A DNA stretch of 39,684 nucleotides, from the IMG/VR virus record IMGVR_UViG_2740892027_000001; one strand, written 5' to 3'. A program made the position numbers and the translations under genes. This document shows, one piece after another, positions 128-23,764 of the stretch. A model generated the notes under the pieces. That model did not search any database and was not told where the DNA came from. It saw nothing but the letters and a program-made list of their open reading frames with translations. How positions within the stretch are numbered: position 1 is the first letter of the stretch; each line of letters begins with the position of its first letter. This stretch comes from a virus (taxonomy: Duplodnaviria; Heunggongvirae; Uroviricota; Caudoviricetes).

Positions 128-610
128 CTATCTGGTCAGGGTGTCATACTGTTTTTCGCAGACTCTTCCGGCTGCGGCTGCCCGGTCAGCATACTCTGCC
201 AGTTGTCTGTTTCTCTCGAGAGATTTGCTGAGCACGTCGGCAAGCAAAACTCCGGTGTCTGCGGCTGACGTCCCAGCGCCGACAATGGCGTTATACTGCC
301 TGAGCTGCTCACGGATGGCAAAGAGTTGTTGCTGCAACCTGCCAGCGCGAGCGGCAGCATCAAGAGCATCATTGCGCGCCTGGTCGATCCTCTGCTGAGC
401 TTCACGTTCATTGGTCGCTTTCTCCTGTTCGTAGTGCTGACGAACTCTCTCATCTTCAGCTTTGCGGTCTTCCTTCGCCTGCGCATACCCGGCATCGTAC
501 TGGCGACTGCCGTGTATATTCCAGGCAACCACTCCGACGATGAACAGAGCAGCAAGCATCAACACAATAAGCATCTGTTTCCAATATGCTTTTACGAATG
601 CCCAGATCAT
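128..610 (-). CDS. Rz-like i-spanin (lysis)
   Basis: 160 aa; N-terminal transmembrane segment then charged coiled-coil region; start codon overlaps endolysin stop (ATGA); last gene of lysis cassette. Confidence 0.6.
   Translation of the reverse strand: MIWAFVKAYWKQMLIVLMLAALFIVGVVAWNIHGSRQYDAGYAQAKEDRKAEDERVRQHYEQEKATNEREAQQRIDQARNDALDAAARAGRLQQQLFAIREQLRQYNAIVGAGTSAADTGVLLADVLSKSLERNRQLAEYADRAAAAGRVCEKQYDTLTR
136..411 (-). CDS. Rz1-like o-spanin lipoprotein, embedded in Rz in another frame
   Basis: Signal peptide with lipobox: MNVKLSRGSTRRAMMLLMLPLALAG|C, then Pro/Ser-rich mature part; GGAGA Shine-Dalgarno 9 nt upstream of ATG at 411. Alternative starts at 372 or 369. Confidence 0.5.
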   Translation of the reverse strand: MNVKLSRGSTRRAMMLLMLPLALAGCSNNSLPSVSSSGSITPLSALGRQPQTPEFCLPTCSANLSRETDNWQSMLTGQPQPEESAKNSMTP

Positions 611-1236
611 ATAGCCAGCACCTTACTGGCAGTGACGTACCGCGCGCGCCGGTCGTCGATGCCGTTCCGGCCACCATTGATAATCAGAGTTACACGTGCA
701 ATATCGCCGGTATACTTCATGCATCCTTTGCTGGCAAAGAACCACGCCGCGCTACGAGCCGCGTATTCGTCCTGCGCCAGCAGTTCAGGACTCTCCAGCA
801 GGTCAACCTTAAGACCGTTTCCACAGTCACGATAGTTATTCAAACCGGTAATCTGGATAAGTCCGCGACCACGGTAATTCCAGCCATCACCAGAGGCATT
901 GTTACCCATGCGTTTGCTGTACACCAGATTTGCGATCGCGCGCTGGCGCTCAAGTGGCAATGGTGGCTCACCAGCACGGCGGCCCAGTGCGTTAGCCTGT
1001 CCCTGGGTGAGACGCCCAGCCCGAACGAAGTTAGCCAGTCCGGTGACGCTGTAGTTGAAATTTTCCTGCAACCGGTTGAAGCCACCAGACTCATGCCCGA
1101 CCTGAGCAATAAACATTGCCTGATCTTCGGGTTTGCTGATACCAAACTCTTTCATCGCAGAAGTTATATGCGAGAACCAGCGAGCGGCCAGCGCCTCGCT
1201 AATACCAGCAGCTCGCTGGAATTGTTTAATCTCCAT
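607..1236 (-). CDS. Endolysin, glycoside hydrolase family 19 (chitinase-like lysozyme)
   Basis: Motifs VGHESGGF and YRGRGLIQITGLNNY typical of GH19 phage endolysins; start taken at MEIKQFQ (ATG 1236, GAGG Shine-Dalgarno) rather than the longer track ORF 607..1467. Confidence 0.8.
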   Translation of the reverse strand: MEIKQFQRAAGISEALAARWFSHITSAMKEFGISKPEDQAMFIAQVGHESGGFNRLQENFNYSVTGLANFVRAGRLTQGQANALGRRAGEPPLPLERQRAIANLVYSKRMGNNASGDGWNYRGRGLIQITGLNNYRDCGNGLKVDLLESPELLAQDEYAARSAAWFFASKGCMKYTGDIARVTLIINGGRNGIDDRRARYVTASKVLAI

Positions 1237-1534
1237 GTTTAGACCTCGATATTTTGAAAATATGAACAACGTTACCGCGTGTTTTAATAACCGCGGCAAG
1301 CATGACAGCGTTGATAATGACCTCAGATAAATCCACAGCCATTGGCGTGCGTAACCAGATTGCATAGACGACACGAACAGGAATACTTGCCGCAGCAACA
1401 ATAAGGAAATAAGCAAGCCACCCTCCCCATCTTCGATGTTGAGAGCCGTTACGCCGGAATGTGACAACGCGAATTGCTATGCCAGTACAAATAACTGCAT
1501 TGGTGATAAGCAAAAAAAACTCATGCGTTACCAT
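1226..1534 (-). CDS. Small membrane protein of lysis cassette (holin/antiholin-type candidate)
   Basis: 102 aa with hydrophobic segments; sits between holin-like gene and endolysin and overlaps both. Confidence 0.4.
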   Translation of the reverse strand: MVTHEFFLLITNAVICTGIAIRVVTFRRNGSQHRRWGGWLAYFLIVAAASIPVRVVYAIWLRTPMAVDLSEVIINAVMLAAVIKTRGNVVHIFKISRSKHGD

Positions 1535-1925
1535 CGTCTTTTCTCCCCGGAATTAACTCGCGTGGATTATCGGAACGGTGATAGAGCCAGATGCCAATAC
1601 GCACGGCGACAATTGCTGACACGAATGCGCCTGCAGAAAAAACAATCCCTTTTTCAAAAGAGTCCTGCGTGATGGTAGGGATCAGGCTGGCTATGCCGAT
1701 AAGAATTGATGCTGCTGGTTTGTAAAAGAGAAGGCCGCAAAGAAAGCTGATCATCGACAGGAGCACCCGGCGACGGATGGGGTACTCTACTGCAGAGGTA
1801 ACAAAAATTACCGCCCCAGCCAAAGCCCCTAAAGCAACCTCCGGAGGGACACCTGCAATAACCGCAGCAAGAGAACTAACACTAAGCCACTGATTTGAAG
1901 TTTCATTGGTTAGTTGGAATGACAT
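1521..1925 (-). CDS. Holin-like membrane protein
   Basis: 134 aa, several predicted transmembrane helices, immediately upstream of endolysin in same operon. Confidence 0.45.
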   Translation of the reverse strand: MSFQLTNETSNQWLSVSSLAAVIAGVPPEVALGALAGAVIFVTSAVEYPIRRRVLLSMISFLCGLLFYKPAASILIGIASLIPTITQDSFEKGIVFSAGAFVSAIVAVRIGIWLYHRSDNPRELIPGRKDDGNA

Positions 1926-1997
1926 AACGAAACCCGTTTATTTGCAAACACCCTGCTTCAGGAAAAGTATACCGCGCAACAACACACCATTTACGGT

Positions 1998-4460
1998 TCA
2001 ATTCCCTGTTAATTGCAAAACTTGCTCTTCCAGCTTTTTAACCCTGCGTCTCATCATCGCAGATTCCAGAATCAGAGCCTCTTCATAACGGATACCGTAA
2101 CATTCACCAGCCTCGACGGCTTCGCGTACCAGAACCTTTGTCTGTATAAGTGGGTAAACTCCTGCAGAATGCTCTTCTTCCGTCACATCCCTGTATTCTG
2201 CCGGGGTCTCATTCCACTTGTCATAACAGATAAATGCCAGTCGTGACACATCTATGCCTTCATTCTGAAATACACTGATAACATGCTGCGCAACTGCACC
2301 AAAGTGCCATCTTGCTCCGTCTTTACCTTTCACTTCGATCCTGTCAAGGTACTGGTATGAAACCCATTCCACTCTTTCCCATGCGTCCAGTATTTTCTCA
2401 TCAATAACCTCTGGAGCAGTCTTGAAACGCGCATCGGACAGCACCGTAAACGCTGACTGGGTAAATCCCCCCGACCATGCACGACCAGCCAACCCAAGAG
2501 AATAAGTATTCGTTGTCGATGGTGTCATGGCTGAATCAGAAAACTGTATATATTCTGAATTTCCAGTAGATATTCGAATATTTCCATTTATTAGCGACAT
2601 AGTGCCTTTAGTATTATCACTATTGAATAATTTCAATTGCGAACTTATACCGCCTCCCACAGCCAGAGATACATCGCCTTCAGCAAGCATTCTGAATTTA
2701 TCTGCAGAAACAAGCGTCTGGTTAGCAAGGTTAAAATATTTAACCCACCATTCAAAACGCCCTGACATAGTCCCAACGTACTGACCAAGCGCAGGGACGT
2801 GAACAACATTGCTATTTGTAGTGCCGTCTATACTGGAAATACCAGTCACCGCTGATGCAGAACTCAGAATATTATTTCTGTCACCCGGATGTTTAATTTC
2901 AACAAAGTTCCTGATACACCCTTCCTCGAAGGTAACCACGCCGGAAGAACTATACATGGGGAATATTGACGCATAATTACTGCGTGCAGCATCTAAGAAA
3001 CGAATGGTTGTAGATGTCTGCAGATCTCCTGATTCATTTTTCCCATCACACCCAGTCATTAGAATATTACTGGCAATATTATTATTTCCCTGAACGGTGA
3101 CGCCGTGCGCCTGCTTTGCGTCCGATTCAGAGTAATCAACCAGCACATCCGAAATCAGGTTACCAGTCCCCTTGCCAACAACTACTGCGGCGTATTTTGG
3201 GTTGTTAGCCATTACACTGCTAATGATATTATTCGTTGGGGCAGTTTCCGTCTCAGTTCCATTGTAAACAACGTGCTGACACTCTTCACCAATAACATTG
3301 CTGACAATGTTATATTTTGCTGCTGTTTTAAGTTCCACTGCACCAAACTGAGGATAATTTCTGGCTATCACACCATCAATTAGCGTATTTTGCGATGAAT
3401 CAAAAAGCACACAACCTGCTTTTTTATTATTTGCGAACCCTAAATACTCTCCTCTTATATCTCTAACAATGTAACCTGACGGAATACCATTATTCGGATA
3501 AGCGATCAAGCTAAATCCTGTTCCTCGCGTATTTGTAAATCTGATATTTTTAACCGATACATCATGGCCACCTGAAAATGACACCTGGTGTCCCTGCACA
3601 CTATCATCTGATTTATTTCCCATAATTGTTAGCGTACTAAGCATGCCACCATCGGGCATGTTAAAAACCAGATGATTACCATCTCTGTCATACTGTTTTA
3701 TCGTTCCCCCACCTGTTCCGTACAAGCCACAACGTGAAAGAGAAACTAAAGATGTATTGAATACCCCTTCCGGAACAAAAACACTGCTAAACGAATGTAA
3801 TGATTTTGTAAAAGCATCCTTGTTATCATTTAAGATTCCATTTTGAGCTCCAAAATCCTTAATGCTGACACCATCACGCATCTTATCCTGGAACGTTCTG
3901 TATACCGCTCCAGAACCATACTGAATAAACCAACCAAAACCACCAATAACTCCGGCGATTGCAGCATCGACATAATTACGCATTGAGCGATTATTTACAG
4001 CGTCCTGCTCAAGTGATGGATCGGCAAGGTTAGATATTCTGTTTTGCTTTGCATCGTAATATTTTGCAAGCAAAGATGGTTTCATCAATGCACGTCTGAA
4101 CCACCCAAAACATCGCTGGATCAGCATCGTCAGGTAGTCAAATGCATCCTCATGAACTTCGGGGAAAAATTTTCCCTGATTGCGAAGATCAGTCTCCTGC
4201 ACCACATCAAGCACACGCTCTATCGTGATTCGCCAGCCAGCAGCAAGCGGCGACGGAAGAACCACTGCACCGCCACTATAAGTTCCCGCCCCTGTTACCG
4301 TATAACCAGCATCCAGCACTAGTTTTGTAACGTTACCGTTAAGGTCAGACACCTGAACAACCAGGTCGGATTTTTTGAAAATACGGAAGGTATACGGAAA
4401 TGATGTCGTAACGCCGTTACCTGTGTATTCGTTGTGGTCAACTTCGGTTGAGACCGTCAT
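1998..4460 (-). CDS. Tailspike / tail fiber with beta-helix region and C-terminal intramolecular chaperone (peptidase S74-like) domain
   Basis: 820 aa; central Gly/Asn/Thr-rich repeats typical of right-handed beta-helix depolymerases; C-terminus has the LSDARFK autocleavage-type motif and chaperone-like tail; last structural gene before lysis genes. Confidence 0.8.
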   Translation of the reverse strand: MTVSTEVDHNEYTGNGVTTSFPYTFRIFKKSDLVVQVSDLNGNVTKLVLDAGYTVTGAGTYSGGAVVLPSPLAAGWRITIERVLDVVQETDLRNQGKFFPEVHEDAFDYLTMLIQRCFGWFRRALMKPSLLAKYYDAKQNRISNLADPSLEQDAVNNRSMRNYVDAAIAGVIGGFGWFIQYGSGAVYRTFQDKMRDGVSIKDFGAQNGILNDNKDAFTKSLHSFSSVFVPEGVFNTSLVSLSRCGLYGTGGGTIKQYDRDGNHLVFNMPDGGMLSTLTIMGNKSDDSVQGHQVSFSGGHDVSVKNIRFTNTRGTGFSLIAYPNNGIPSGYIVRDIRGEYLGFANNKKAGCVLFDSSQNTLIDGVIARNYPQFGAVELKTAAKYNIVSNVIGEECQHVVYNGTETETAPTNNIISSVMANNPKYAAVVVGKGTGNLISDVLVDYSESDAKQAHGVTVQGNNNIASNILMTGCDGKNESGDLQTSTTIRFLDAARSNYASIFPMYSSSGVVTFEEGCIRNFVEIKHPGDRNNILSSASAVTGISSIDGTTNSNVVHVPALGQYVGTMSGRFEWWVKYFNLANQTLVSADKFRMLAEGDVSLAVGGGISSQLKLFNSDNTKGTMSLINGNIRISTGNSEYIQFSDSAMTPSTTNTYSLGLAGRAWSGGFTQSAFTVLSDARFKTAPEVIDEKILDAWERVEWVSYQYLDRIEVKGKDGARWHFGAVAQHVISVFQNEGIDVSRLAFICYDKWNETPAEYRDVTEEEHSAGVYPLIQTKVLVREAVEAGECYGIRYEEALILESAMMRRRVKKLEEQVLQLTGN

Positions 4461-4564
4461 GTTAAATCTCCAGATAGTCGCAGCACCCGTTGCGCCGCAT
4501 ATCTGGTTATTCTATTACCCAAAAAACCATATATGGATAGAAAGACTGTGAATATGAATAGATA

Positions 4565-4579
4565 TTACCTTTCAGGTAA
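4565..4579. promoter_or_regulatory. Operator-like palindrome TTACC-tttca-GGTAA (full ATTACC-N5-GGTAAT)
   Basis: Perfect inverted repeat; member of a motif family found at least 14 times in the window, almost always intergenic. Confidence 0.55.
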
Positions 4580-4616
4580 TTTTCAAAACGTGCTGGATAG
4601 CAAACAAATTATTTGC

Positions 4617-4636
4617 TACTGTATAAATATACAGTT
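4617..4636 (+). promoter_or_regulatory. LexA (SOS) box TACTGTATAAATATACAGTT
   Basis: CTGT-N8-ACAG with AT-rich spacer, 15/16 match to CTGTATATATATACAG; ends 6 nt before ATG 4642; an AGCAAA-N7-TTTGCT inverted repeat (4599-4617) abuts it. Confidence 0.65.
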
Positions 4637-4641
4637 ATTGC

Positions 4642-4914
4642 ATGGAGAAGATTAAGATGCAGCAGTATCACTATCCACTGGAAGAGGGATTTACCGAAAG
4701 GATTCACACGCCGGGAGGCGTCAGGTCACTGGTGGAGGGATCGCACTTGATGAAATTACTCCGGGATCTCGATAAGGATGGATTTAATGTCGATGGCCCA
4801 CTTGCCGAACTGACTGCACTGATTAACTACGTCACCAGCTCACAGATGTCTATGCGGGATCTGCAAACACATCTCGACTATTGTGCCGAACAATTACGAA
4901 AACAAACCAGATAA
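4642..4914 (+). CDS. Small antirepressor-like protein (paralog of the C-terminal domain of the Bro-N antirepressor at 5230-5925)
   Basis: 90 aa; LMKLLRDLDKDGFNVDGPLAELTALINYV...LQTHLDYCAEQL aligns with LMNLLNQLQEDGHDVSGAAAELTTMFCYI...IQTHAEYINDK of the downstream antirepressor; LexA box at promoter. Alternative start ATG 4657 with GGAG Shine-Dalgarno. Confidence 0.55.
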   Translation: MEKIKMQQYHYPLEEGFTERIHTPGGVRSLVEGSHLMKLLRDLDKDGFNVDGPLAELTALINYVTSSQMSMRDLQTHLDYCAEQLRKQTR

Positions 4915-4945
4915 GGTTTGTAATTACCAAGTGGAGTGCTTATAT

Positions 4946-4960
4946 TTACCTTTGCGGTAA
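4946..4960. promoter_or_regulatory. Operator-like palindrome TTACC-tttgc-GGTAA (full ATTTACC-N5-GGTAAAT)
   Basis: Perfect inverted repeat between the two antirepressor-type genes. Confidence 0.5.
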
Positions 4961-5051
4961 ATTTACATCGCACTCCTCTTGTGCCATAGTAATCGGGCAC
5001 TGGCAAAATCCAGTGCCGGGATTGGCGTCCCGGATTACTAAAAGGCGCATT

Positions 5052-5071
5052 CACCGCGCAAGCGGTTTTTT
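5052..5071 (+). terminator. Putative intrinsic terminator (ACCGC-gcaa-GCGGT + T7)
   Basis: Short GC stem followed by TTTTTTT; preceded by two further hairpins at 4996-5033. Confidence 0.4.
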
Positions 5072-5229
5072 TATGCGTATAGCACGGCCACATTCGTATT
5101 ATGGTGGGCTGTGTGGGGGCACCGAAAGGTGCGCCGGGTCCTTTTAGCCGGTTACGCCAACCCTGCACAGTTCACCACCAACCGATTGGCGTCGGTAGTG
5201 GTGATTAACCAGACTAAAAGGTAACCACT

Positions 5230-5925
5230 ATGACAGCTACAAAAAGCACGTCCATTTTTTCTTTCGAATCTCAAGCCGATATACGGGTAATCGTCATTAA
5301 TGGTGAGCCATGGTTTATCGCTTCAGATGTTTGTCGGGCTATAGGCATAGCAAACCATCGAGATGCTGTTCGAAAACTTGATGATGATGAGAAGGGCGTC
5401 GCTTCAACCGACACCCCTGGCGGTGAGCAAGAATCGATCATTATCTCCGAGTCAGGCCTCTACACACTGATCCTCCGCTGCCGCGATGCGGTGACACCAG
5501 GCACTATCCCCTACCGCTTTCGCAAATGGGTTACAGGTGAGGTTCTTCCTCAGATCCGCCGCACCGGAAGTTACATTAAAAACTCGCTCCCGCAGGAAGA
5601 ACGCATAAAGATGGTTGCCGACCAGGTAGCCAACGCCACGGCGTCAGCAGTAATGCAGGCGATGAAGATAGAGAACAAAACCTACAGCGCCCCGCTGAAG
5701 CCCGGCTACCGCAGCCTGATTCACTCGCCGTCTGGTGTTCTCGGCCTGACGGAAAACTCACTGCTGATGAATCTGCTGAACCAGTTACAGGAAGACGGGC
5801 ACGACGTATCGGGCGCGGCGGCGGAGCTGACCACCATGTTTTGCTACATCGTTGGTGTGAGCAAGTGCCTGCGTGATATCCAGACGCACGCGGAGTACAT
5901 CAACGACAAGGCTGGGTTCTTCTGA
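5230..5925 (+). CDS. Antirepressor with N-terminal Bro-N domain
   Basis: 231 aa; N-terminus SIFSFESQADIRVIVINGEPWFIASDVCRAIGI matches the Bro-N signature; C-terminal domain shared with ORF 4642-4914. Confidence 0.75.
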   Translation: MTATKSTSIFSFESQADIRVIVINGEPWFIASDVCRAIGIANHRDAVRKLDDDEKGVASTDTPGGEQESIIISESGLYTLILRCRDAVTPGTIPYRFRKWVTGEVLPQIRRTGSYIKNSLPQEERIKMVADQVANATASAVMQAMKIENKTYSAPLKPGYRSLIHSPSGVLGLTENSLLMNLLNQLQEDGHDVSGAAAELTTMFCYIVGVSKCLRDIQTHAEYINDKAGFF

Positions 5926-5991
5926 CGGGCGGCGGCACAGGGACGTGCCTTTAAAATAATCATTGGCGATGTGATGTAGATTCGCGTAATA

Positions 5992-6006
5992 TTACCTTAC
6001 GGGTAA
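5992..6006. promoter_or_regulatory. Operator-like palindrome TTACC-ttacg-GGTAA
   Basis: Perfect inverted repeat 39 bp upstream of ATG 6045; the 17-mer ATTACCTTACGGGTAA also occurs at 33330-33345. Confidence 0.55.
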
Positions 6007-6044
6007 ACCCCGTTTAATGGCGTTTCTATATTATGAGGTGATGT

Positions 6045-6680
6045 ATGCCACAACAACTGCTGAATCCGGCAAAGGTTACTGAAGTTTTCGCTCATCTGAA
6101 CGAAACTCCAGACAACCGCGCCCTGTATTCAGAGTTAGTGAACGGCAACGATGTCACATCTGATGTCAAAGGCGTTTCTCTGGCTCCTGGATACCGCGTT
6201 GTCCGTGTAGACGATCGTAAGAAAGGCGAGATTCCACAGGCGCACTTCGAACTGGCATTGATAAATGACCTCACCGAAGAGGTAGTGTATTACAATCGTG
6301 TCATTATCCAACCTGACAGCTATCTTAACTGCCGACCTGTCACGCAGATATTGGTATGGAGAACCCAGAAGCCTAAGCATCGTGCTGTGCTTCATGATTT
6401 CGCCGGCATCATCTTCATGAACTACCTCTTGGAACGGTACGATATCATCGTGTCAGATCGCAACCAGACTCATGAAGGCATGTCGTTCTGGCAGGCTCGC
6501 ATGTATGACGCACTGGAACTTGGCCTCCACCTCTATGGTTACGACATGATGACATGCGAGCTGATAGAGATGAATAACGAGGAAGAGCTTGAGAAAGGTG
6601 AAACCTGGTTGTGGGGTGATGCGGAAAACTTCCAAAACAGATTGGCCATAATTTCAAAGCATAAGCTGCCAATAAAATAG
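6045..6680 (+). CDS. Hypothetical protein, stand-alone accessory (moron) gene
   Basis: 211 aa, GAGGTG Shine-Dalgarno; own operator-like site upstream and strong terminator downstream; no family recognised by eye. Confidence 0.6.
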   Translation: MPQQLLNPAKVTEVFAHLNETPDNRALYSELVNGNDVTSDVKGVSLAPGYRVVRVDDRKKGEIPQAHFELALINDLTEEVVYYNRVIIQPDSYLNCRPVTQILVWRTQKPKHRAVLHDFAGIIFMNYLLERYDIIVSDRNQTHEGMSFWQARMYDALELGLHLYGYDMMTCELIEMNNEEELEKGETWLWGDAENFQNRLAIISKHKLPIK

Positions 6681-6688
6681 TTCTTTAA

Positions 6689-6709
6689 GCCCGCGGCGCG
6701 GGCTTTTTT
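6689..6709 (+). terminator. Intrinsic terminator (GCCCGCG-g-CGCGGGC + T6)
   Basis: GC-rich hairpin then TTTTTT, 9 nt after the stop of ORF 6045-6680. Confidence 0.7.
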
Positions 6710-6745
6710 GTGTCTGCGGATTCCCGCCCTGGCGGCGGTGGCATT

Positions 6746-6774
6746 CGTTAAAAACAAGGCCGCGAAAGCGGCCT
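6746..6774 (-). terminator. Intrinsic terminator on minus strand (AGGCCGC-tttc-GCGGCCT + TGTTTTTAA)
   Basis: Hairpin directly abuts the GTGACATGTCAC palindrome and follows the stop of ORF 6783-7079. Confidence 0.55.
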
Positions 6775-6786
6775 GTGACATGTCAC
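6775..6786. repeat. 12-bp perfect palindrome GTGACATGTCAC (copy 1 of 3)
   Basis: Identical 12-mer at 24324-24335 and 26589-26600; overlaps the TGA stop of ORF 6783-7079. Confidence 0.7.
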
Positions 6787-7079
6787 GTTCCTTTTCTGAA
6801 TGATAGCCATTCGAAAAATGATGACATTCCACCGCAGACAATAGCAAAGATGATCCCACCAAAGAAGAGAAGGCCAGCCTGCCACCACTCCCACCGCCAT
6901 ACATCCACAGCGCCAACCATACCAACAATCGCTCCAACAAATGGAATATAGCTCACGATGAAAGCAATGGGGGCTGCAATTATCCAGTGCAATCCCCACC
7001 ATGATTCAAGCCCAGCCATAATTGCTGCCAACTGAAAAAGACCAACGACGATATAAACAATGAATCCTATAGCTTGCAT
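6783..7079 (-). CDS. Small integral membrane protein
   Basis: 98 aa, about three hydrophobic helices; between internal virion protein genes and the antirepressor island. Confidence 0.5.
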   Translation of the reverse strand: MQAIGFIVYIVVGLFQLAAIMAGLESWWGLHWIIAAPIAFIVSYIPFVGAIVGMVGAVDVWRWEWWQAGLLFFGGIIFAIVCGGMSSFFEWLSFRKGT

Positions 7080-7274
7080 GTAGTCACCTATTTACCCAGT
7101 AAAAATCAGAGGCCTCCCCTCAATAAGGCTTGCAACAAGAACTACTCCCTGCACAACAAAGATGAACCAGCAAATAGCTTGAGTCTGAGGGTTAAGAAAA
7201 TATTTGTAGCGGTCAATAAATAACAGCCCACCAGAAATTATCACACTCAAAATAATTAAAAACACAACACTTCC

Positions 7275-23687: not shown

Positions 23688-23764
23688 GTGGCATTAGCTC
23701 AGTCGGACAGAGCAACCGCCTTCTAAGCGGTTGGTCGCAGGTTCGAATCCTGCATGCCACGCCA
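23688..23764 (+). tRNA. tRNA-Arg (anticodon UCU), phage-encoded
   Basis: 77 nt cloverleaf folded by hand: 7-bp acceptor stem GTGGCAT/ATGCCAC, D-arm GCTC/GAGC, anticodon stem ACCGC/GCGGT with loop CUUCUAA, T-arm GCAGG-TTCGAAT-CCTGC, 3' GCCA. Confidence 0.85.

Follow-up and report, generated by a model that had tools for sequence, protein, structure and literature searches.

The question raised by this locus is which kind of tailspike it encodes, and which hosts such a spike would open to the phage that carries it. We estimate, with a probability of about 0.88, that the gene product is the tailspike of an E. coli prophage of the phiV10/epsilon15-like (Uetakevirus) group, and that it is made of three modules: an anchor, a K5 lyase and a self-cleaving chaperone, both the cleavage and the lyase activity being predicted. 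The window, i.e. the whole stretch of 39,684 nucleotides analysed here, encodes the protein as a single ATG open reading frame with zero internal stops. The features used below are the following.

1998..4460, minus strand: tailspike coding sequence, 820 aa and stop, complete, identical to RefSeq WP_016245481.1
4468..4471, minus strand: putative ribosome-binding site GGAG, 8-11 nt 5' of the tailspike ATG, read from the sequence
3951..4460, minus strand: virion-anchor domain, aa 1-170, from PDB, fold and PHROG matches and from identity to proteins with unrelated C-termini
3867..3950, minus strand: linker and recombination junction, aa 171-198, ending at the conserved V-x-DFGA where the beta-helix starts
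2886..3866, minus strand: catalytic right-handed parallel beta-helix of a K5 (heparosan) lyase, aa 199-525, from 2x3h, 9vvr, the AF2 model and identity to KflA
3264..3335, minus strand: predicted catalytic stretch with E376 (3333-3335), K378 (3327-3329) and Y399 (3264-3266), aligned with KflA E206, K208 and Y229
2436..2885, minus strand: C-terminal trimerisation stalk, aa 526-675, aligned to the end of the 2x3h chain and ending at the predicted cleavage-site Ser675
2421..2441, minus strand: LSDARFK motif, aa 674-680, with the predicted scissile bond Ser675/Asp676 and Lys680 as putative general base
2001..2435, minus strand: Peptidase_S74 intramolecular chaperone domain, aa 676-820, of 16.9 kDa, predicted to be cut off once folding is complete
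1927..3846, no strand assigned: exchanged cassette (spacer, chaperone domain, stalk and lyase domain), without DNA homology to otherwise 90-97% identical phiV10-like phages
128..1925, minus strand: lysis cassette (two holins, a GH19 endolysin and a DUF2514 spanin-like protein), downstream of the tailspike, context only

The tailspike gene is in the usual Uetakevirus position, with the lysis cassette downstream. The window is complete in its structural, lysis and integrase genes, with the integrase at its end, and the prophage adjoins yfgI in E. coli. Its backbone shares 97.5% identity with phiV10, with the O157 typing phages 9 and 10 and with phiv142-3. A scan for promoters and terminators returned counts not above those of shuffled sequence, and nothing usable upstream of the tailspike gene. 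The protein matches no NCBIfam model and belongs to a cluster of 384 members; its RefSeq record is annotated as 'tail fiber domain-containing protein'.

We first consider the N-terminus, which ties the protein to its lineage. Sequence search of the PDB matched aa 1-179 to 28lx/8ck1 (E=6e-30), the fold matched 8ck1_B (45% identity, TM 0.60), and many PHROG tail families matched aa 1-166. Over the first ~180-205 aa the gene has 92-96% DNA identity to phiV10-like phages, e.g. phiv142-3, ZX5 and HEMP4, and this homology stops at query nt 1849-1928, which corresponds to aa ~178-205. The lineage anchor, the gene position and flanks 90-97.5% identical to those of phiV10-like phages place the protein among Uetakevirus tailspikes. 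The anchor is 96% identical among proteins whose central domains share just 16-20% identity. These patterns bear out the earlier suggestion that the receptor-binding part is exchanged independently of the conserved N-terminal anchor. The GC content of the exchanged cassette is 0.38-0.47, versus ~0.50 for the backbone; the C-terminal ~620-640 aa are, as judged from sequence comparison, a swapped, AT-richer cassette. The chaperone domain moves along with the catalytic module in a single cassette. The entire C-terminal cassette, enzyme and own chaperone together, would have been gained by recombination at the junction between anchor and beta-helix. The combination of this anchor with a K5 lyase was found in 0 of 50,697 phage records.

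The central part of the cassette matches K5 lyases. The best match in the PDB sequence search was the tail spike 9vvr (E=2e-226, aa 192-814), and KflA (2x3h) matched with E=1e-185 over aa 199-675. Identity to KflA (UniProt O09496, 'Depolymerase, capsule K5-specific') is 57% over aa 201-817, and the catalytic domain is 56-62% identical to characterised KflA-type lyases. The AF2 model shows the rungs of a single-stranded right-handed parallel beta-helix with pLDDT of 80-97 at aa 200-510, and its best Foldseek match is the K5A lyase 2x3h (E=1.6e-40, TM 0.73, 60% identity). Positions 206, 208 and 229 of O09496 are E, K and Y; Glu206, Lys208 and Tyr229 of KflA were reportedly identified as catalytic by Thompson et al. 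in 2010. When K5-lyase-type sequences are aligned, the equivalent E376 and K378 are invariant, Y399 is kept in 13 of 14, and 113 of 477 positions do not vary within the family. Because of the 57% identity to KflA and the conservation of KflA E206, K208 and Y229, we read the enzyme as a lyase and not as a hydrolytic glycanase: we place it, as a polysaccharide lyase (beta-eliminase), in the KflA/ElmA family of K5 lyases, with an activity predicted from sequence. The earlier note had proposed a beta-helix glycanase; the beta-helix depolymerase stands, the hydrolytic glycanase does not.

The same note had based the beta-helix on central repeats rich in Gly, Asn and Thr. The composition of aa 199-525 (G 11%, N 9.2%, S 9.8%, T 6.7%) is indeed moderately rich in Gly, Asn and Ser. 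Tandem Repeats Finder returned only a trivial 20-nt match and no true sequence repeats, so we do not keep the word 'repeats'. The Pfam Beta_helix model also remained under its cut-off (19.3 versus 25.9 bits). The predicted beta-helix rests on homology and modelled structure, not on repeats. The stalk that follows is intertwined in KflA, and the AF2 monomer has pLDDT <50 over aa 563-677, as expected of a chain that is intertwined in the trimer; the model is unreliable there, and partly so for the chaperone domain. It is uninformative for the linker region, aa 85-195.

The C-terminal domain was recognised by profile, sequence and fold. Pfam PF13884 (Peptidase_S74, 'Chaperone of endosialidase') scored 51.3 bits on aa 675-735 (cut-off 22; E=1.4e-13). 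In the PDB sequence search, the region of ~aa 630-814 matched endoNF (3gw6, E=8e-21) and GA-1 gp12 (3gud, E=2.4e-20), and the chaperone region also matched the chaperone-bearing chains of the phage tailspike 6eu4 and the T5 LTF. At the level of fold, Foldseek retrieved 3gud_B (TM 0.72, 36% identity) and, with probability 1.00, 3gw6 and 4uw8 from an AF2 monomer of moderate pLDDT, which also places a C-terminal helix at 792-819. The beta-helix and the chaperone fold that the earlier note had proposed to look for with AlphaFold are thus both predicted. The autocleavage-type motif that it had pointed out, LSDARFK, is present at aa 674-680, and a translation of the 39.7-kb window in all six frames contains no second S-D-x-R-x-K. 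An alignment of 27 tailspikes shows no substitution at Ser675 or Lys680, and the two residues fall on the dyad of 3gw6, which is an S911A mutant, and on that of 3gud. EndoNF cannot be cleaved without its S911/K916 dyad, and the same source counts 'K5 lyases (e.g., ElmA)' as one of the chaperone-bearing families (PMC8326128). The deposited mature KflA chain (2x3h) stops exactly at the Ser aligned to S675, and the K5 lyase of K1-5, of 67 kDa, has a mature form of 52 kDa (PMC5380687). The agreement of Pfam, PDB-sequence and fold matches, with an invariant Ser675/Lys680 pair, argues for a chaperone domain of the self-cleaving type, as had been claimed. Its predicted length after Ser675 is 145 aa, so the earlier 'about 150 aa' was right. 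The label endosialidase-type holds for this domain and fails for the catalytic part, which is of K5-lyase type by its PDB matches. We also considered an endosialidase (GH58) catalytic function and rejected it, since only aa 616-814 match endoNF.

These elements suggest how the spike may be built and used. The lineage-conserved anchor (aa 1-~198) would fix it to the tail, and the enzyme (aa 199-675) would consist of the beta-helix with its predicted catalytic E376, K378 and Y399, followed by a trimeric stalk. The Peptidase_S74 chaperone (aa 676-820) would nucleate trimerisation of the stalk and would then be removed by Ser675/Lys680-dependent autoproteolysis between Ser675 and Asp676. The predicted 89.7-kDa precursor would thereby yield a 72.9-kDa mature subunit and a 16.9-kDa fragment. 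With this enzyme the virion would bore its way through the K5 capsule, and we therefore propose that the spike limits the host range of the phage to K5 strains. The reading frame, the homologies of its domains, the conserved residues, the borders of the mosaic and the link to K5 genomes are observed; that this allele trimerises, is cleaved, acts as a lyase and is specific for K5 is what we infer.

The distribution of the lyase module was compared with that of the K5 capsule gene kfiC. Of 5426 complete E. coli genomes, 68 contain the lyase module and 269 contain kfiC, with a union of 301; the overlap was obtained from this exact union in a concatenated-query search. K5 capsule genomes, as marked by kfiC, make up 36 of the 68 lysogens, versus 233 of the 5358 other genomes (4.3%). 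This corresponds to an odds ratio of 24.7 (Fisher p=7e-30), a value uncorrected for phylogeny in a set where ST131 and ST1193 clones dominate. The association is consistent with the role in host range put forward in the earlier note. A K5 lyase gene can enter K5 genomes by phage integration (PMC5412866).

The remaining lysogens, 32 of 68, lack kfiC, and capsules were compared with the literature for the ST1193 lysogens only. One kfiC-negative lysogen that we examined carries a K1 (neu) locus. ST1193 strains with a K1 capsule descend from a K5 ancestor by documented recombination at the capsule locus, with their prophages conserved (PMC11488385), and the K1-capsule lysogens of ST1193 agree strain by strain with the published table of K5-to-K1 switches. 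The spike could be a relic in a defective prophage, or be kept for a function in the lysogen, and not serve as a working virion tailspike. In K1-capsulated ST1193 it would indeed mismatch the host capsule, and strain E5, a 100% match that has kfiA-D, carries a kfiB annotated as frameshifted. Against this, the reading frame is intact and 99.8-100% conserved in the 68 genomes, and it lies in the full structural, lysis and integrase gene set described above, 97.5% identical to viable phages. We consider a relic unlikely.

The protein might also be a depolymerase that kept the fold of K5 lyases while its specificity moved from heparosan to another acidic polysaccharide, in which case it would not determine a K5 host range. 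Relative to the characterised KflA, 43% of the positions in the catalytic domain have changed, and its specificity could therefore have drifted; in addition, no isolated phage in the collection searched carries the allele. The lysogens without kfiC, including the one with a K1 locus, point in the same direction. However, the predicted catalytic triad and the 113 invariant positions are retained, the module is enriched 25-fold in kfiC-positive genomes (again uncorrected for phylogeny), and the K1 lysogens of ST1193 trace back to a K5 ancestor. Furthermore, the enzyme of the prophage of E. coli K5, ElmA, is listed as a K5 lyase in the literature (PMC3594737). A drifted specificity seems to us quite improbable. 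A glycoside hydrolase on a beta-helix is a very remote prospect: the fold matches do include the hydrolytic tailspikes of HK620, Sf6 and CBA120 as well as polygalacturonases, and there is the weak Pfam Beta_helix match, but these folds share 11-14% identity with E of ~1e-5 to 1e-6, versus 60% and 1.6e-40 for the K5 lyase, and the E-x-K and Tyr residues of the lyase site are conserved.

None of this biology is new: K5-lyase tailspikes, self-cleaving chaperones and module swapping are already known and are textbook cases. With its conserved anchor, a K5 lyase of the KflA/ElmA kind and a self-cleaving domain, the protein is of a known type that annotation labels generically. The consequence is mainly one of naming, as hundreds of entries called 'tail fiber domain-containing protein' or 'phage tail protein' become readable as ElmA-type heparosan lyases. 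Such relabelling covers the 384-member cluster and the 68 complete genomes, including the ST131 and ST1193 clinical clones. It concerns strains used for the production of heparosan and heparin, where a resident lyase shortens the product, and it bears on therapies in which phages or enzymes attack the capsule of K5 ExPEC. In ST1193, where capsules have switched, the prophage can be read as a fossil that marks present-day K1 strains as descendants of K5 ones.

One can speculate on a role of the spike beyond infection, which we regard as doubtful: it might serve as a weapon against K5 competitors, or trim capsule or heparan sulfate. In the former case, ExPEC lineages that retained the prophage through a capsule switch, namely K1 ST1193, would hold a K5-specific phage or enzyme that hits K5-capsulated competitors, e.g. 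ancestral ST1193, K5 ST131 or Nissle-like strains. In the latter, lyase released by spontaneous induction would trim the heparosan capsule of the lysogen, or unsulfated domains of host heparan sulfate, and thereby contribute to colonisation or virulence. Streptococcal prophage hyaluronidases are thought to work comparably.

Among known systems, the closest is ElmA, reportedly described by Legoux et al. in 1996 as the chromosomal (prophage) N-acetyl-heparosan lyase of E. coli K5. Like the tailspike, it is a K5-lyase homologue on an E. coli prophage with a C-terminal chaperone domain, and most probably our protein is either ElmA or one of its alleles. The agreement is in prophage origin and in length, which for ElmA we take to be 820 aa, equal to that of the tailspike ORF; a variant 89% identical to the tailspike (P0002) also has 820 aa. 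They differ in that the database label of the tailspike is just the generic one, and look-ups of the protein clusters found no entry named ElmA.

KflA of coliphage K5A / K1-5 (O09496; 2x3h) has the same layout of beta-helix, stalk and chaperone, and shares the E-x-K and Tyr site as well as the Ser-Asp-Ala-Arg-x-Lys cleavage motif. It differs by a short N-terminal adaptor-binding peptide of ~30 aa, fit for an SP6/K1-5-type virion, where the tailspike has a Uetakevirus anchor of ~198 aa; the alignment also shows a 17-residue insertion inside the chaperone domain at ~aa 750-775. KflA is carried by a lytic phage, the tailspike by a temperate one. The 843-aa tail spike 9vvr, a K5 lyase of the T7-like Kayfunavirus type, shares the lyase and the chaperone domain, but starts with an N-terminal domain of T7 gp17 type (PF03906) in place of the Uetakevirus anchor. 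EndoNF (3gw6) and GA-1 gp12 (3gud) have the chaperone fold and the Ser/Lys autocleavage dyad in common with the tailspike; the catalytic domain of endosialidases is a sialidase beta-propeller, and the tailspike has no such domain. Conversely, the tailspikes of phiV10, phiv142-3, vB_EcoP_ZX5 and HEMP4 have the same gene position, the same flanking genes and an N-terminus of 92-96% DNA identity, whereas their receptor-binding and enzymatic parts are unrelated (16-20% identity).

The tailspike gene is an intact reading frame with the LSDARFK motif towards its C-terminus, as the earlier note had proposed. It lies in the following setting:

1998-4460, minus strand: tailspike ORF, 820 codons, ATG start, uninterrupted
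2421-2441, minus strand: LSDARFK motif (residues 674-680)
4642-4914, plus strand: 90-aa ORF just upstream of the tailspike
5230-5925, plus strand: Bro-N/Ant antirepressor-like protein
6783-7079, minus strand: 98-aa ORF that looks hydrophobic

A GGAG stands 8-11 nt 5' of the tailspike ATG, and S-D-x-R-x-K occurs only once in the six-frame translation of the whole 39.7-kb window. RefSeq lists an identical protein, WP_016245481.1, under the name 'tail fiber domain-containing protein', and every named member of its 90% cluster (384 members) bears this name or 'phage tail protein'. NCBIfam models searched with the tailspike protein (window 2001-4460, minus strand) gave no match. This is an annotation gap: a recognisable K5 lyase has no NCBIfam model and goes by generic names in hundreds of entries.

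Sequence and structural model together support the prediction of a heparosan lyase of the ElmA/KflA type rather than a glycanase. Residues 199-675 match KflA, the K5 lyase of coliphage K5A (PDB 2x3h, E=1e-185), and residues 201-817 are 57% identical to the full-length protein (UniProt O09496, 'Depolymerase, capsule K5-specific'). Thompson et al. are said to have assigned, in 2010, the KflA active site to Glu206, Lys208 and Tyr229. O09496 indeed has E, K and Y at these positions, and their counterparts here are E376, K378 and Y399; among K5-lyase-type sequences the first two are invariant and the third is found in 13 of 14. The AlphaFold2 monomer places successive beta-helix rungs at residues 200-510 (pLDDT 80-97). 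In a fold search of the PDB the model matches 2x3h best (E=1.6e-40, TM 0.73, 60% identity), with hydrolytic tailspikes far lower (11-14% identity), and the search also returns the chaperone structures 3gw6, 3gud and 4uw8. The linker and stalk are poorly modelled, which is no surprise for parts existing only as an intertwined trimer. Structure prediction, which had been suggested as a check, thus recovers both the beta-helix and the chaperone fold. Of the beta-helix glycanase proposed from the sequence, the beta-helix stands but the glycanase gives way to a lyase. The Gly/Asn/Thr-rich repeats amount to composition: Gly, Asn and Ser are moderately abundant in the central part, and a search for true repeats in the tailspike DNA found none. 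The Pfam Beta_helix match to the tailspike was below threshold.

The C-terminal chaperone domain is borne out. Residues 675-735 score 51.3 bits with Pfam Peptidase_S74 ('Chaperone of endosialidase'), whose cut-off is 22, and the region from ~616-675 to ~814 matches four chaperone domains of solved structure: those of the endosialidase endoNF (3gw6), Bacillus phage GA-1 gp12 (3gud), a tailspike (6eu4) and the L-shaped fibre of T5 (4uw8). The Ser911 and Lys916 of endoNF, a Ser-Lys dyad indispensable for autocleavage (PMC8326128), align with Ser675 and Lys680, which are invariant, together with Arg717 and His719, in an alignment of 27 tailspikes. The deposited mature KflA chain (2x3h) ends at the Ser aligned to Ser675. 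Compared with KflA-type lyases, the domain carries an insertion of 17 residues (aa ~750-775, window ~2135-2210, minus strand, ETPAEYRDVTEEEHSAGVYPLIQTKVLV region), which coincides with the position of the long beta-hairpin 'tentacle' of endoNF.

By homology at every step, we infer that the C-terminal chaperone domains would set three 89.7-kDa chains in register, after which the stalk would fold. Lys680 would then activate Ser675 for attack on the Ser675-Asp676 bond; Arg660, one position off in the alignment, may correspond to endoNF Arg897. Release of a 16.9-kDa fragment would leave a stable trimer of 72.9-kDa subunits (all three masses are computed), which would dock to the tail through its N-terminal domains. 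Heparosan would be bound in the beta-helix groove and cut by beta-elimination, which would give the podovirus access to the outer membrane. The K5 lyase of K1-5 is reported at 67 kDa, with a mature form of 52 kDa (PMC5380687).

The window corresponds to a prophage of the phiV10/epsilon15-like (Uetakevirus) type. Positions 4461-29000 are covered to 81-83%, at 97.5% identity, by phiV10, O157 typing phages 9 and 10 and phiv142-3. Downstream of the tailspike gene lie two holins, a GH19 endolysin and a DUF2514 protein; the integrase lies at the opposite end, and yfgI adjoins the element in complete genomes. The stretch that separates the tailspike from the large structural genes (4461-7274) is variable among related phages. 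Besides the 98-aa minus-strand ORF it contains three accessory ORFs on the plus strand, namely the 90-aa ORF, the one for the Bro-N protein and one for a 211-aa protein with no Pfam match. Over the C-terminal 80 residues of the adjacent Bro-N/Ant-like protein, the 90-aa ORF shows 44% identity (E=1e-17), and it has the look of a free-standing copy of that domain. A tRNA-Arg gene (anticodon TCT; 23688-23764, plus strand) lies within the prophage, likewise in O157 typing phages 9 and 10.

Related phages share DNA homology across the lysis cassette up to 1913-1949, and then again only from ~3846-3925 (aa ~178-205), inside the tailspike gene. The non-homologous cassette runs from a 72-nt spacer through the chaperone domain and the stalk to the lyase domain, at a GC content of 0.38-0.47 against ~0.50 in the backbone. 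The N-terminal anchor matches many PHROG tail families. Its identity is 96% in E. coli proteins that share only 16-20% with this one in the central domain and carry other Pfam domains there (pectate-lyase-3, peptidase G2, End_N_terminal, GDSL), while the catalytic domain is 56-62% identical in K5 lyases of Kagunavirus, Vectrevirus, Kayfunavirus and Schitoviridae-type phages, whose N-termini are unrelated. Of 5426 complete E. coli genomes, 493 contain the N-terminal module and only 68 the lyase module. The two parts are found separately, and their combination in none of 50,697 phage records; the idea that the receptor-binding part is exchanged independently of the anchor is therefore correct. 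To this it should be added that the chaperone domain moves along with the enzyme.

Strain E5, whose tailspike gene matches at 100%, has the genes for K5 heparosan synthesis, kfiA, kfiB, kfiC and kfiD, in its capsule locus. Its kfiB is annotated as frameshifted, with a degenerate transposase between kfiC and kfiB (NZ_CM172488.1; locus L003, 11529-14347); the capsule may be inactive, or the frameshift may be an assembly error. Among the 5426 genomes, 269 have kfiC and 301 have kfiC or the lyase module (concatenated query), leaving 36 with both by subtraction. Therefore 53% of lysogens (36/68) have kfiC, against 4.3% of other genomes (233/5358; odds ratio 24.7, Fisher p=7e-30, uncorrected for clonality). 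In the kfiC-negative lysogen MCJCHV-1, region 2 of the capsule locus is of the K1 (neu) type. This strain belongs to ST1193, which went from K5 to K1 by recombination with its prophages conserved; MS10711 is K5, and MS10858, MS8320, MS8324, MCJCHV-1 and 09-02E are K1 (PMC11488385). Our kfiC calls agree with that report in 6/6 strains, all of which have the lyase gene. K1 ST1193 genomes carry the K5-lyase-type tailspike prophage at 99.8% identity (NZ_CP030111.1 785001-830000, locus L004; MS10858, MS8320, MS8324, 09-02E). Thus, the prophage is best read as gained by K5 ancestors and, in K1 ST1193, as a leftover and marker of that ancestry. A spike that no longer fits the host capsule is consistent with the published switch, and this mismatch of K5-type spike and K1 capsule is a by-product of our analysis.

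The tailspike belongs to the already known family of K5-lyase tailspikes. ElmA, a prophage-encoded member, was reportedly described in 1996 and is presumably 820 aa long, the same length as our ORF; an 89%-identical variant, likewise of 820 aa, is found in another genome at the same chromosomal position. A phage can integrate a K5 lyase gene into K5 genomes (PMC5412866), ElmA is entered as 'ElmA - prophage - E. coli K5' (PMC3594737), and it is a cited example of K5 lyases bearing a chaperone domain (PMC8326128). By its length and prophage origin, the tailspike is very probably (roughly 85%) ElmA or an allele of it.
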